NCBI GenBank assembly: GCA_963754385.1
Contig: CAVWGE010000004.1
Span: 118,780-182,779 of the forward strand
Direction of reading: 5' to 3'
Source of the DNA: an uncultured Chloroflexia bacterium
GTDB taxonomy: Bacteria; Chloroflexota; Dehalococcoidia; GIF9; UBA5629
Length of the DNA stretch: 64,000 bases
A program made the position numbers and the translations under genes. Each line of letters starts with the position of its first letter. The stretch's first letter is position 1. Below the pieces are notes generated by a model. That model was not told the origin of the DNA. It made no database searches and saw only the letters and a list, made by a program, of their open reading frames with translations. Below, piece after piece: positions 3,671 through 64,000 of this stretch.

Positions 3671-3781
3671 TAGTCACACCTACCATTTCTAGTGAGTTAA
3701 TTATAACACCAAAGAGGTTATTGTGTCCTATCAGCTGAGTTTTAAGGGGTCTATTTTGTCACCCTGAACCTTTTGCTTTAT

Positions 3782-3895
3782 GTCATTCTGAAGGAGCGAA
3801 GCGACTGAAGAATCTCACTCTGGGTAAGCTCCGTGAAGGCTCTGGATTCTTCGCTTCGCTCAGAATGACAGGGGGAACGTCTCAGAATGACAAGG
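3782..3895. repeat. Long imperfect palindromic intergenic element (gtcattctga..cgaagcg..gaagaatc / gattcttcg..cgctcagaatgac)
   Basis: Read directly: two arms are near-perfect reverse complements and can form a hairpin of roughly 40 bp. A related copy lies at 32647-32768. Sits in the divergent prs/nth intergenic region. Confidence 0.5.
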
Positions 3896-4031
3896 AGAGA
3901 TGTAGGGATGGAGGCTGTGCCTGAAAATGTAGTGCCGACCTTAGGGTTGAGCTCCCGAGGCTAAAGCCTCGGGACTACATGTTTAGTGTGTATTACTCTC
4001 CCGTCGAGGTAGAGGGAATGAGGCTAAGTTT

Positions 4032-7028: not shown

Positions 7029-8018
7029 TTACTGTGGTTCCATTGGTTCCCGTGGACCCATTGGCCCAATTTTTGGAACGTCTGGTCTGGCTTTTATCCA
7101 GGCTTTGTACTCATCTGCCTGCTGCTGGGTCCATGTGCCCTGATTTATCAGCTCTTGAAGTCTGGTGCCCAAAGATTTCTCACGCAATTCACCTTGGGCC
7201 TGCTTGAAGGCATTTTCAAGGTCTTCCTTGTTGATGTTAAGAATTTCGGCGACGCGTGCTGCCAAGGCATCGCGGTGCTCTTGGAGTTTAGCTACCCCAT
7301 TCTGGCGTAGTTCGGGACGAATTTTCGGCATATCAGGCTTTGATTCTAGCCATGCCTTGTACGCATCTGCCTGCGCTTGAGTTAGCTTGCCCTCATCCAG
7401 CAACTGCTTGAGTTGTCTGGGGCCAACCTTTGGTATATCCGCCGGTCTTGACTCCATCCAGGCTTTGTACTCATCTGCCTGCTGCTGAGTGATTATGCCT
7501 TCCTTTACAAGCCGCTCACCCATTGTTGGCATAATCTCTGGGATATCTGGCTTTGCCTCCATCCATGTCTTAAGCTGGTCTACCTGCTCTTGAGTTATGA
7601 TGCCGTTGTCCAGCGCCTCCTCAAGTTGTCCTGGGGGAACCATTGGGACATCCGGCTTGGCTTCCATCCATGCTTTAAGCTCGTTTGCCTGCTCCTGGGT
7701 CAATGTGCCCTCAGCTATTAATTCTTGAAGCCTGGCATTGAGAGTTTCCTCCCGCGATTCCGTTTGAGCTTGCTTGAGGGCATTCTCAAGCTCCTGCTGG
7801 TCAATACCCAGTATCTCGGCGACTCGAGCTATTAGGGTGCCTTGGCGTTCTGGAGTTTTGCCTTCTTGAGCCAGTGCTATAACTGGTATGCTGGCGATGA
7901 GCATTACGGCCACCAATATGGTGGCAAGAACGATCTTCTGGATTTTTTTCAATTTTTTGGACCTACTTTCTTTTGACTGGAAGCTAACTCCAGACCATGT
8001 AGGGGGTTCTGTGCCCAC
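7029..8018 (-). CDS. Membrane-anchored or secreted tandem-repeat protein of unknown function
   Basis: N-terminal hydrophobic anchor (IVLATILVAVMLIASIPVIALA) followed by five copies of a roughly 40-aa motif (LTQEQANELKAWMEAKPDVP and variants). N- and C-halves are duplicated. First gene of a repeat protein-RR-HK arrangement on the minus strand. Confidence 0.6.
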   Translation of the reverse strand: MGTEPPTWSGVSFQSKESRSKKLKKIQKIVLATILVAVMLIASIPVIALAQEGKTPERQGTLIARVAEILGIDQQELENALKQAQTESREETLNARLQELIAEGTLTQEQANELKAWMEAKPDVPMVPPGQLEEALDNGIITQEQVDQLKTWMEAKPDIPEIMPTMGERLVKEGIITQQQADEYKAWMESRPADIPKVGPRQLKQLLDEGKLTQAQADAYKAWLESKPDMPKIRPELRQNGVAKLQEHRDALAARVAEILNINKEDLENAFKQAQGELREKSLGTRLQELINQGTWTQQQADEYKAWIKARPDVPKIGPMGPREPMEPQ

Positions 8019-10393: not shown

Positions 10394-11635
10394 CTAGTCT
10401 ATTCCCGGGGTGGGGAAATGGCTGCACATGGAACGCACTTGTTCGGCTATTCCCTTTTGTATTTTTTTGTCTTCAGGGTTGGAGAGCACCTTCATAATGA
10501 AAGAGGCAATCTGCCTCATTTCCTTGGGGCCAAAGCCTCTTGTTGTAATGGCTGGTGTACCCAGCCTGATACCGCTGGTGATTTGAGGTGGTCTGGGGTC
10601 GTCGGGGATTGCGTTCCTATTTACCAGGATGCCAGAGGCTTCTAGGGCTTCCTGAGCGGCTATACCTGTTATTCCGGTCGGGGTAAGGTCGATGAGGATG
10701 AGGTGGTTGTCAGTGCCACCAGAGATAAGTCGTAAGCCATGTTGCTTTAGCTCAACGGCGAGGACTTGAGCATTCTCCAGTACTCCCTTTTGGTAGGTGG
10801 CGAACTCAGGTTGCATGGCTTCAAAGAAGGCTATAGCTTTGGCAGCGATGGCGTGAATCATCGGTCCACCTTGCATCATGGGGAAAACGGCGGCATCTAT
10901 TTTTGTAGCCAGGGCTTCTTTGCATAGGATAAAGCCGCTGCGGGGACCACGCAAGGTCTTATGGGTTGAAGAGGTGATTATTTGTGCATGAGGTACTGGA
11001 GAAGGATGTAAATTGGTAGCTACTAATCCGGCAATGTGAGCCATATCTGCCACAAGCTGCGCGCCAGCGGCATCGGCTATGCTGCGGAAACGGCTGAAGT
11101 CAATAATTCGGGGATAGGCACTGGCTCCAGCTATTATCAACTTGGGTTTGTGTTTCAGGGCTAGTTTTTCTATCTCGTCGTAATCGAGCCTTTCAGTTTG
11201 TCGGTCAATTCCGTAGGTGACGAACTTGTACCATTTCCCTGAGAAGTTGGCTGGGGCACCGTGAGTCAGGTGACCGCCATGGCTTAAGCTCATACCCATA
11301 ACGGTATCGCCGGGCTTGAGCAGGGCGAAGTAGGCTCCCATATTGGCCTGGCTGCCGCTATGGGGTTGGACGTTGGCATGCTCGGCATGGAACAGTTTTT
11401 TGGCGCGTTCGATTGCCAGGCTTTCGATGGCATCTACATTAGGACAACCGGCATAATAGCGGTGTTGGGGGTAGCCTTCGGCGTACTTATTGGTTAATAT
11501 GGAGCCTTGAGCCTCAAGCACTGCTCGGCTGGCGTAATTTTCGGCAGCGATAAGATTTATAGTTTCCTTTTGCCGCTTAGCTTCTAGCTTAAGAAATCGG
11601 ACAGTTTCTACGTCTTGTTTTGGGTTATTGGACAA
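10394..11635 (-). CDS. glyA: Serine hydroxymethyltransferase
   Basis: 413 aa with [11 protein letters not shown] and the PLP-lysine motif [12 protein letters not shown]. Confidence 0.95.
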
Positions 11636-32646: not shown

Positions 32647-32768
32647 GTCATTCTGAGCCTTTCTCCCCATGTCATTCTGAGCACAGCGAAGAATCTAAAC
32701 CCCCTTCTCTTTCCGCAGCAGATTATGCTGTACCAGATTCTTCGGTCACTTCGCTCCCTCAGAATGAC
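32647..32768. repeat. Palindromic intergenic element, second copy of the gtcattctgag...cagaatgac family
   Basis: Arms gtcattctgagcacagcgaagaatct and agattcttcggtcacttcgctccctcagaatgac, plus an extra gtcattctgagc half-copy at 32647. Lies in the divergent polA/argF promoter region. Confidence 0.5.
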
Positions 32769-32851
32769 ACGAAGGAAAGGTTTGAACTCATTATATAACA
32801 GGTTGACAGTCGTGGTATACTATTTCTCACCCTCAGGAAGGTAGCTCAAAA

Positions 32852-45571: not shown

Positions 45572-45647
45572 GAAGTTGTAGCTCAGTTGGGAGTGCGTTT
45601 GATTTGCAGTAAAAAGGTAGCGGGTTCGAATCCCATCAGCTGCACTA
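45572..45647 (+). pseudogene. Degenerate duplicate of tRNA-Ala (anticodon-position TGC, 3' CTA), likely pseudo-tRNA
   Basis: 76-nt cloverleaf-alignable copy of the 46507 tRNA, including about 12 bp of shared 5' flank (gactttttgg). It carries mismatches in the acceptor (2-71 A.G), D (12-23 T.T), anticodon (30-40 G.A) and T (50-64 C.A) stems, A3-T70 instead of the alanine G3-U70 identity pair, and CTA instead of CCA. Confidence 0.55.
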
Positions 45648-46506: not shown

Positions 46507-46582
46507 GGGGCTGTAGCTCAATTGGGAGAGCGTTTGACTGGCAGTCAAAAGGTAGTGGGTTCGAATCCCATCAGCTCCACCA
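46507..46582 (+). tRNA. tRNA-Ala (anticodon GGC)
   Basis: Folded by hand: 7-bp acceptor stem with the G3-U70 alanine identity pair, D stem gctc/gagc, anticodon loop ctGGCag, T arm gtggg-ttcgaat-cccat, discriminator A, encoded CCA. Total 76 nt. Confidence 0.9.
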
Positions 46583-63284: not shown

Positions 63285-63932
63285 ATGGCAATGAAAATCG
63301 TATTAATAGTCGTACTGTGCATCCTGGCGTTTCTTATCCTGTGGCTTAGCCTGGCTAAACTAATCAGGAAGATGTTTCGTTTTCCGGCACCGGCGTTTAT
63401 CGGGCGGCTTCTGGATAGCGGCTACAGGAGGCGAATACAGCCGCCGGCTCAGTTGATAGAGCGCAGCGGCATAAAGAAGGGTATGAATGTTCTGGACCTC
63501 GGCTGTGGCAGCGGGGCTTTTACACCTTTTATTGCCCGGACAGTCGGCGAGAAGGGCAAGGTCTATGCGCTGGACATACAAGCGGATATGTTGAAGCAGC
63601 TTGAGAATAAGCTGTCCAGGCCTGAAAACAATGATATTAAGAATATCAAGCTCATCGAGGGCAATGCCTATGAGCTGCCATTTGAGGACAATTCTCTGGA
63701 TTTGGTGAATATGGTGACTGTCCTCCAGGAGATACCGGACAGAAACAGGGCTTTGCAGGAGGTCAATAGGGTATTGAAGCCGGGAGGGTTTTTTGCTGTG
63801 ACGGAACTGTTTCCCGACCCTGACTATCCGTGGAAGTCCACTACTATCAAGTTAGGCAAGGGAACCGGCTTTGTGGTGGATGAGGTTTCGGGGAATTTTT
63901 TCAACTACACAGTCAGATTTAAGAAGCCGTGA
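63285..63932 (+). CDS. Membrane-anchored class I SAM-dependent methyltransferase
   Basis: N-terminal TM helix, motif I VLDLGCGSGAF, motif II YALDI, and a Methyltransf_11-like core. Confidence 0.8.
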   Translation: MAMKIVLIVVLCILAFLILWLSLAKLIRKMFRFPAPAFIGRLLDSGYRRRIQPPAQLIERSGIKKGMNVLDLGCGSGAFTPFIARTVGEKGKVYALDIQADMLKQLENKLSRPENNDIKNIKLIEGNAYELPFEDNSLDLVNMVTVLQEIPDRNRALQEVNRVLKPGGFFAVTELFPDPDYPWKSTTIKLGKGTGFVVDEVSGNFFNYTVRFKKP

Positions 63933-64000
63933 GATTGCCACGTCCCGATTGCATCGGGACTCGCAATGACGATGGGTAACGGCTCAGAATGCCAGGTGAG

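Follow-up and report, generated by a model that had tools for sequence, protein, structure and literature searches.

TGTC-tagged hairpin repeats in a Dehalococcoidia contig as candidate cognate repeats of small SsnA-like GIY-YIG nucleases

A recent study by Chenal et al. (2025, PMC11893778) describes the Neisseria protein SsnA as a 94-aa single-domain GIY-YIG enzyme (CDD cd10448). Its target, the hairpin repeat NTS (CGTCATTCCCGCGMAVGCGGGAATCYRG), is bound on one strand only and exclusively in single-stranded form. SsnA cuts ~3 nt 5' of the tag of the repeat in Neisseria and leaves duplex DNA and RNA untouched, and the C right after the palindrome is the most critical base for its binding. Four homologues likewise exhibit strand-specific binding and nicking of single-stranded DNA specifically. 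Repeats of this type, termed Ssn-related motifs (SRM), are located near 71% of SsnA homologues, and SsnA is encoded in 81% of the genomes that contain >200 SRM repeats. The Neisseria system restricts transforming DNA, and a layout and origin resembling those of an insertion sequence (NTS-ssnA-NTS) is offered by these authors as a hypothesis only. Here we analyze a 64-kb stretch of Dehalococcoidia DNA (64,000 nucleotides of contig CAVWGE010000004.1, referred to in its full length as the window) that contains two long inverted-repeat elements, element A between prs and nth and element B between polA and argF. We propose, with a probability of roughly 0.8, that the arms of these elements are the cognate repeats of a clade of small GIY-YIG nucleases homologous to SsnA, and that such repeats would be spread by nicking and repair.

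A second group of comparable repeats is formed by the CGTC-tagged repetitive extragenic palindromes (REPs) (Di Nocera 2013, PMC3733652). These repeats have an unpaired CGTC tag, which often reads TGTC and also CCTC, an 8-9 bp stem starting with A-T, a 4-5 nt loop and a short tail, and they occur mostly as head-to-head dimers with occasional in-frame insertion into genes. The superfamily includes Neisseria dRS3 and Rickettsia RPE-4/-6, spans 5 phyla and has no associated transposase or RAYT (REP-associated tyrosine transposase). The arms in the window show this layout except for two G.A stem positions and a 3-nt loop. Each is an imperfect palindrome composed of ATTCT, G.A/A.G, GC, GAA, GC, G.A/A.G and AGAAT that is preceded by (T)GTC and followed by C. 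The unit consists of an unpaired TGTC tag, a stem-loop with tandem G.A pairs and a GAA loop, and a C tail, with the tag reading TGTC or similar in all window arms. In the window, each element joins two such units head to head, and every unit is extended on its 5' side by a truncated head and a ~12-nt spacer. As a TGTC-tagged imperfect hairpin, the arm is REP-like and may be counted among the "CGTC-tagged" repeats (Di Nocera 2013, PMC3733652). The window sequence type is not among the CGTC-tagged families in the text or supplement consulted for that paper, its consensus figure aside, so that absence from the catalogue is unproven.

The repeat subtype is in tight physical association with a GIY-YIG clade that is homologous to the Neisseria gene. 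For example, one viral contig (L014) contains a 114-aa GIY-YIG open reading frame (ORF; PF01541) with a dimer on one side and a solo arm on the other. The encoded protein has 3597 homologues, many of them 70-90% identical, that are found mostly on short contigs. Since many of these ssn homologues occur on contigs of ~1 kb, the repeats probably break assemblies. In a metagenome sample of 80 loci of this protein (254 kb), arm heads lie at most 300 nt from the GIY-YIG gene in 79 loci. They are present upstream in 68/73, downstream in 61/74 and on both sides in 50/67, and head density is 5.5 per kb near the gene vs 0.35 per kb elsewhere, a difference of ~15-fold. The closest relatives share a fixed geometry of T-GTCATTCTGAGCGAAGCGAAGAATCTCTC with the head 79 nt before the ORF, the ORF, ~30 nt and GAGAGATTCTTCGCTTCGCTCAGAATGAC-A, and the flanks outside these arm-ORF-arm ends are unrelated among them. 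The arms also enter the coding sequence. Ten of the 22 homologues in one alignment (A2) end with ...RDSSLRSE, or a one-residue variant, followed by the stop codon; this is the arm read in frame (AGA GAT TCT TCG CTT CGC TCA GAA TGA, with the TGA within CAGAATGAC). One A2 homologue has an N-terminal read-through, ...VILGKAKNL..., that corresponds to the upstream arm. Many ssn ORFs of loci L141-L220 and alignment A2 thus stop inside the 3' arm, and others there end with ...PNRVSF and a stop inside a forward-oriented arm, so that both the C-terminal residues of the nuclease and its stop codon come from the repeat. In the viral contig L014, a different hairpin repeat, GGCGCACCCTTnTGnTTTnAAnGGTGCGG, stands in direct orientation on either side of the dimer-ssn-arm unit, at 10648-10678 and 11247-11277.

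The identity of this partner bears on a rival explanation in which the repeats are classical REP/REPIN doublets moved by an HUH Y1-type RAYT. The arms do resemble REPINs in being imperfect palindromes arranged as inverted doublets. Moreover, a phmmer search of 1.31 Mb of loci with E. coli RayT, a single-sequence query of limited sensitivity, returned one weak RayT-like ORF (L065:5288-5632, minus strand, E 1.3e-4) and no RAYT flanked by repeats. However, the L065 ORF is 2.4 kb from the dimer and is not arm-flanked, the tag is TGTC rather than GTAG/GTGG, and Di Nocera (2013, PMC3733652) likewise found no RAYT beside CGTC-type repeats. Together with the presence of the GIY-YIG gene near repeats in 79 of 80 loci, this renders the RAYT explanation highly improbable.

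The GIY-YIG partner is a single-domain protein of 94-111 aa that matches PF01541 only and belongs to the same length class as SsnA; sequence searches of NCBIfam and PDB with the nuclease gave no matches. Its consensus detects an N. gonorrhoeae ORF by tblastn with 50.6% identity (E 2e-18), and BLASTP of that ORF vs the consensus gives 48% identity (E 2e-27). The ORF is situated amid 8 canonical NTS/SRM repeats, all of which match the published pattern. Two PLSDB entries in which the ssnA-like ORF is unannotated (NZ_CP119142.1 and NZ_CP119140.1; L138) are labeled as plasmids, yet they are 2.17-Mb N. gonorrhoeae chromosomes almost without annotation.

Named nucleases of the clade are P0001 and Planktothrix WP_083616022.1. 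The Planktothrix plasmid homologue (62% identical) has GTCATTCTGAG dimers with tandem truncated heads on both sides, as in the window, and around a Spirosoma plasmid homologue the flanking repeats are of a corresponding variant, GTCATCCCGAG...GGGATC. From this matching, repeat subtype appears to track the nuclease. Two further loci (L148 and L149) share not only ssn but also the dimer downstream of it and the 3' flank, and they diverge completely just 5' of T-GTCATTCTGAG, which places the breakpoint at the tag, where characterized Ssn enzymes cut.

In the window, GTCATTCTGAG with at most one mismatch is found 7 times vs 1.19 expected, a count attained by none of 100 shuffles. Exact copies are located at 3859, 3881, 32647, 32671 and 32758, the copy at 3782 has 1 mismatch, and the inner box GAAGAATC/GATTCTTC is present at 3807, 3845, 32688 and 32736. 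An earlier note on this DNA had described two copies with the same arms that sit between the divergent genes prs(-)/nth(+) and polA(-)/argF(+), and both the arms and the flanks are as it described. The copies also have the folding advantage over shuffled controls that the note had proposed to check. Specifically, RNA folds of elements A and B have z scores of -3.5 to -4.3 on either strand, and DNA folds of the full composites reach -28.8 kcal/mol (z -4.8) and -26.9 kcal/mol (z -4.5). The hairpins are shorter than the ~40 bp given in that note, as the arms measure 33 and 25 nt. Elements A (+) and B (-) are opposite in orientation, and once this is allowed for the order of their parts is identical: a truncated head (11-12 nt), a pyrimidine-rich spacer (11-13 nt), a 33-nt arm, a loop (30 or 40 nt), a 25-nt arm, a spacer and a truncated head. 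The consensus of A and B is GTCATTCTGArGGAGCGAAGyGACyGAAGAATC for the 33-nt arm and, as the reverse complement, GTCATTCTGAGCrmAGCGAAGAATC for the 25-nt arm. An extra partial arm that had been noted on each element is real and represents an outer head, but it is not alone. It has a partner, GTCACCCTGAAC, at 3758-3769 in element A and a weak one at 32781-32791 in element B. What the note had recorded as an additional partial arm thus belongs to a pair of outer heads, the second of them degenerate, and since outer heads are present on the far sides too, the composites span 3758-3891 (A) and 32647-32791 (B).

Element A begins with an outer truncated head of the ACCCT subtype (GTCACCCTGAAC, 3758-3769, plus strand) that was detected by a generic head scan, occurs in the same composite in L067 and pairs with 3881-3891 in the DNA fold. 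It is followed on the plus strand by a 12-nt pyrimidine-rich spacer (CTTTTGCTTTAT, 3770-3781), the final T of which opens the TGTC tag, and by the 33-nt long arm (GTCATTCTGAAGGAGCGAAGCGACTGAAGAATC, 3782-3814) with head and inner boxes ATTCT/AGAAT. The 30-nt loop (3815-3844) contains a module, CACTCTGGGTAAGCTCCGTGAAGG, that is common to other Chloroflexota copies and recurs in L067, L127, L111, L186 and L203. The 25-nt short arm on the minus strand (3845-3869; reverse complement GTCATTCTGAGCGAAGCGAAGAATC) has exactly the sequence of the consensus arm found beside ssn genes. An 11-nt spacer (3870-3880, minus strand; AGGGGGAACGT on the plus strand) and the outer truncated head CTCAGAATGAC (3881-3891, minus strand) complete the element.

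Element B begins on the plus strand with the outer truncated head GTCATTCTGAG (32647-32657), 21 nt from the polA start codon (32625), followed by a 13-nt pyrimidine-rich spacer (CCTTTCTCCCCAT, 32658-32670) and the 25-nt short arm (GTCATTCTGAGCACAGCGAAGAATC, 32671-32695). The 40-nt loop (32696-32735) contains a small hairpin of its own, GCAGCAGATTATGCTGT, and the 33-nt long arm is on the minus strand (32736-32768; reverse complement GTCATTCTGAGGGAGCGAAGTGACCGAAGAATC). The far end on the minus strand (32769-32791), with spacer ACGAAGGAAAGG and a degenerate outer head TTTGAACTCAT at ~32781-32791, is a weak assignment. The inverted repeat of element B reaches 32783, and its spacers pair in the DNA fold. 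There are three repeat units in the window, with the third, of a sister subtype, at 63933-63993 on the minus strand. In this unit a head (GGCATTCTGAG) plus a 12-nt spacer (CCGTTACCCATC) likewise precedes a solo arm, GTCATTGCGAG-TCCCGATGCAATCGGGA-CGTGGCAATC, that reads GTCATTGCGAG...GGCAATC. It is located directly after the TGA stop of ORF 63285-63932, and the window ends 7 nt past it.

The family extends well beyond the window; the earlier note would have given up its idea had only the two copies existed, with no folding advantage over shuffled controls. The dimer pattern GTCATTCTGAG-N50-80-CTCAGAATGAC, searched in viral contigs and in one-genome-per-species contigs, matches 13 viral contigs (IMG/VR) and at least 120 genome loci. 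The statistics that follow refer to 139 distinct dimers (138 for base and duplication counts) among the matches listed. By record labels, dimers are carried by ~17 phylum-level groups. The hosts include Chloroflexota, Acidobacteriota, Bacteroidota (with the isolate Spirosoma profusum), Planctomycetota, Verrucomicrobiota, Bacillota, Patescibacteria, Melainabacteria, Desulfobacterota, Alpha- and Betaproteobacteria, Nitrospirota, Ignavibacteria, Omnitrophota, Calditrichota, Armatimonadota, Gemmatimonadota and Bdellovibrionota. The dimers are 72-125 bp in size with termini TGTCAT...ATGACA. The base before GTC is T in 123/138 and C in 9/138, and the base after GAC is A in 124/138. Two boxes per arm are conserved, and the loops and arm interiors are variable, with the interiors often forming a mini-hairpin of their own. 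The head and inner box of the same arm covary (ATTCT/AGAAT 286, ATCCT/AGGAT 11, ACCCT/AGGGT 4, ATGCT/AGCAT 1). This covariation indicates that each arm could fold alone, though arm-to-arm pairing in a dimer of one subtype also fits the counts.

These termini, sizes and variable interiors, together with the polymorphism of copies between strains, are also what would be expected of a MITE (a miniature transposable element with inverted repeats), a gene-less derivative of a DDE-type insertion sequence recognized by its TG...CA terminal inverted repeats. A MITE-like mobile repeat had in fact been one suggestion of the earlier note. What stands of it is a dispersed and strain-polymorphic family, but not a classical MITE. 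No target-site duplication is present for k=2-9 at either boundary of 138 dimers, where flank identity is at chance level, and extension of the palindrome outward into the flanks is marginal only (3.8 vs 3.3 of 12 positions). No transposase is situated close to the elements, and no transposase family is recurrent in the flanks. Complete arms also occur alone and as flanks of the GIY-YIG gene, and the covarying boxes allow an own-hairpin fold of each arm in addition to dimer arm-to-arm pairing. We therefore regard a MITE origin as extremely improbable. More generally, clustering of all ORFs from 133 element loci gave no recurrent neighbor family beyond generic ones, and Pfam matches of ORFs bracketed by two elements were ordinary metabolic or phage genes with the exception of one GIY-YIG. 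A full-text literature search with the repeat sequence returned unrelated primer matches only. The location between divergent genes, which had been considered atypical, is unremarkable, since the tandem, convergent and divergent contexts of the 139 dimers (60, 22 and 18) are close to those of background intergenic gaps (228/62/76).

Truncated heads are a recurrent part of the family. They occur at most 40 nt upstream of 39/528 distinct arms vs ~2 expected, and we infer that they are a recurrent by-product. Tandem arrays composed of 2-4 copies of the 11-18 nt 5' end of the arm, each with a 6-29 nt spacer, adjoin full arms in L140 (Planktothrix agardhii plasmid p1), L007, L053, L202, L205 and L211. 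Recombination at the hairpin apex, slippage and nested insertion are possible origins for such arrays. Several loci contain 3-4 repeat clusters within 8 kb. In phage-like contigs from IMG/VR (L006/L011 and L007, the latter with an SPP1-type portal protein) a repeat cluster is found in nearly every intergenic gap, and some are heterodimers of an ATTCT-type arm and an ATCCT-type arm. A Gastranaerophilales metagenome-assembled genome (MAG; L079) has near-identical dimers at 2350-2439 and 7837-7926, 5.4 kb apart and inverted, with reverse-complementary outer flanks, an arrangement that may reflect either a segment able to invert or a large duplication in inverted orientation. Dimers inside ORFs were mostly dismissed as read-through artefacts of crude gene calls. 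One that looks truly in frame is L019:2764-2840 from a Bacteroidales MAG, which is situated in the linker between the AAA+ lid and the HTH_8 domain of an NtrC-type sigma-54 activator and resembles the in-frame insertions of Rickettsia palindromic elements.

The gap with element A is bordered by secA-prs (minus strand) and nth (plus strand), and the gap with element B by polA (minus strand) and argF (plus strand). Between prs and element A, the minus strand has a sigma70-like site for prs (3729-3700), and a TGnTATAAT-like box can be read from the sequence just upstream of nth. With one site on each side, element A would lie between, and upstream of, both predicted promoters. Element B ends so close to the polA start codon that, with the sole promoter-like match facing polA inside it (32749-32722, minus strand; weak sigma70-like, 9/12 positions), it is probably part of the polA leader or the source of the polA promoter. 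Regarding strain variation, an identical prs protein is present in three other assemblies, two of which carry element A and the third of which (L003) does not. L003 has near-identical flanks and keeps both genes and their proximal promoter regions, but window positions 3727-3880, 154 nt, are absent and replaced by ~38 unrelated nt. The only part of element A that it retains is the outer head adjoining nth. Since this prs-nth block differs among strains with an identical prs protein, the change is recent. Strains without element B were sought by way of an identical argF protein, and no such protein is on record. Between element A and nth, a perfect 9-bp hairpin that occurs only once in the window, TCCCGAGGC-TAAA-GCCTCGGGA (3953-3974), is conserved in all three related strains, including L003. 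Two tRNA genes (45572-45644 and 46507-46579) are the only Rfam matches in the window, the first with a low score (36 bits).

These surroundings permit a reading in which the elements are a structured RNA or a regulator operator acting toward nth and polA, both involved in DNA repair. In a common orientation element A points to nth and element B to polA, RNA folds are more stable than those of shuffles, and element B must be in or near the polA leader. However, there is no relevant Rfam family at the gathering threshold in the window, and around element A matches at E<=10 are at chance level only. The same sequence is found beside unrelated genes in the phylum-level groups described above, with no recurrent neighbor. 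In addition, the predicted prs promoter lies downstream of element A, nth is at a good distance downstream of it on the other side, and L003 keeps both genes and proximal promoter regions without element A. The link with DNA-repair genes has n=2 and no echo in the other element loci. A binding-site pair for a regulator, as the earlier note had considered, also finds no counterpart among the proteins, as the only recurrent protein partner is the small Ssn-family GIY-YIG nuclease, and characterized relatives of this nuclease recognize the hairpin in single-stranded DNA only. An RNA or operator acting toward nth and polA is thus very unlikely, and the window copies would instead be passengers in two divergent promoter regions. 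In this genome, the repeats are markers of hypervariable sites within housekeeping-gene control regions, in one case 21 nt from the start codon of polA.

By analogy with the characterized enzymes, window arms would be substrates of an Ssn-type enzyme. Such a nuclease would bind the hairpin in single-stranded DNA and nick that strand a few bases 5' of the tag, presumably where strands are exposed in replication, repair or DNA uptake. Recombinational repair from other copies could then spread, duplicate, truncate and nest the units. Copying by nick and repair would produce messy junctions and whole-block replacement from strain to strain, and it would leave no target-site duplications. We know of no strand-transfer chemistry for GIY-YIG enzymes, so we favor repair-based copying over transposition as the putative route of spread. 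Cleavage ~12 nt outside the tag was considered as the boundary of a mobile unit and was rejected, as the Neisseria cut is ~3 nt 5' of the tag.

Several observations weigh against the assignment to an Ssn-type system. First, the window arms fail the published SRM pattern, HGTCWYN(0-2)YYVSBRHN(0-5)WNVSBRGN(0-2)RNCYNB, that Neisseria NTS passes. Second, the DNA hairpin of a single arm has the expected shape but low predicted stability, -1.9 kcal/mol (z -0.3) vs -8.9 (z -3.9) for Neisseria NTS under nearest-neighbor parameters; this energy model may handle tandem G.A pairs and the GCGAAGC mini-hairpin poorly. Third, no ssn gene is present in the 64-kb window, so that a cognate nuclease in the Dehalococcoidia host is unproven, and Ssn activity on the window repeats is predicted from characterized homologues of other clades. 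Fourth, GIY-YIG enzymes cut DNA but are not, to our knowledge, able to rejoin it. Fifth, L003 represents a block replacement and was rejected as a clean empty site. Finally, the breadth of hosts rests largely on MAGs, which are at times binned wrongly; one and the same locus, for instance, is present in L024 (Saccharimonadales) and in L029 (Acidobacteriota).

The missing gene also raises the possibility that the window copies are inert relics, Ssn-type repeats that only decay in a genome that no longer has the nuclease. Mismatches in the arms, such as GAA for GAG at 3792, and the degenerate outer heads are what would be expected of decay, and even among genomes with >200 SRM repeats only 81% encode SsnA (Chenal et al., PMC11893778). 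On the other hand, 5/6 heads are exact 11-mers, both short arms are near consensus, the prs-nth block has changed recently between strains that share an identical prs protein, and the view of this genome is limited to 64 kb. We consider a relic state possible but rather unlikely.

As regards the first of these objections, the published pattern (Chenal et al., PMC11893778) is a search tool derived from 29 genomes and not a functional definition. Applied to the 254 kb of cognate nuclease loci it yields 1 match vs 326 heads. Failure of the arms to match it would place the window repeats in an undescribed subfamily of a known repeat-nuclease system, new relative to the published SRM pattern, although an earlier listing is possible. 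This subfamily is represented by the single-stranded arm TGTCATTCTGAGCGAAGCGAAGAATCTC and the arm TGTCAYYCTGAR, and is admitted by the pattern YGTCAYYCYGAR...RRTC. Because the published pattern misses the whole subfamily, the reported figures for Ssn association and host range are likely underestimates.

A further reading that we put forward only tentatively, and that we judge doubtful, is that the dimers are gene-less derivatives of an arm-ssn-arm mobile unit whose nuclease drives its own spread by nick-induced copying, a form of homing-like repair. The fixed geometry of the arm-ORF-arm loci, the L148/L149 breakpoints 5' of the tag, the polymorphism between strains and the lack of target duplications are compatible with such a unit. 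If true, the arm-ssn-arm unit would be a class of prokaryotic selfish element, yet to be demonstrated, that operates without transposase chemistry, and near-identical 25-nt ends in ~17 phylum-level groups would imply that it often moves across phyla.

The assignment of the arms to an Ssn-type system has several consequences. It extends the Ssn system to Chloroflexota, Acidobacteriota, Bacteroidota, Planctomycetota, Verrucomicrobiota and other groups. Each pair of Ssn protein and repeat is a candidate new specificity for single-strand DNA tools, in this case for an unusual A/T-rich and G.A-mismatched hairpin. In addition, the repeats are open in several reading frames (...VILSEAKNL..., ...RFFASLRMT...) and can seed spurious ORFs or extend real ones.

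In comparison with known systems, the window-type repeats share features with several classes of bacterial palindromes. Like bacterial MITEs such as the Correia and RPE elements, they belong to a 75-150 bp class with terminal inverted repeats, intergenic dispersion and occasional in-frame insertion. They differ in that there is neither a target-site duplication nor a transposase-encoding parent, and in being built up from single hairpins, which are found solo as well. The REP/BIME/REPIN-RAYT systems of Proteobacteria are similar in being short, extragenic and polymorphic imperfect palindromes, arranged as inverted doublets and linked to one small gene of nuclease type that has repeats at its own flanks, but here the tag is TGTC rather than GTAG and the enzyme fold is GIY-YIG rather than HUH-Y1. 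With the CGTC-tagged REPs, the window repeats share the CGTC/TGTC tag, the A-T start of the stem, the short tail and head-to-head dimers, and window-type repeats also share in-frame gene insertion (L019) and the lack of a nearby RAYT. They depart from that group by a loop of 3 nt vs 4-5, by a 9-position stem with two G.A pairs, and by a phylum range much wider than the 5 reported. Finally, relative to SRM/NTS repeats, the stem here is rich in A/T, contains two tandem G.A mismatches and has a GAA loop, in contrast to the G+C-rich stem ATTCCCGC; the repeats are mostly inverted pairs with 30-60 nt loops and truncated-head extensions, and they occur chiefly in Chloroflexota, Acidobacteriota, Bacteroidota, the PVC group and others. 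What the two have in common is an (H)GTC tag immediately 5' of a hairpin whose first bases are AT, a C as the next base after the palindrome, and a position on both sides of a gene for a small single-domain GIY-YIG protein.

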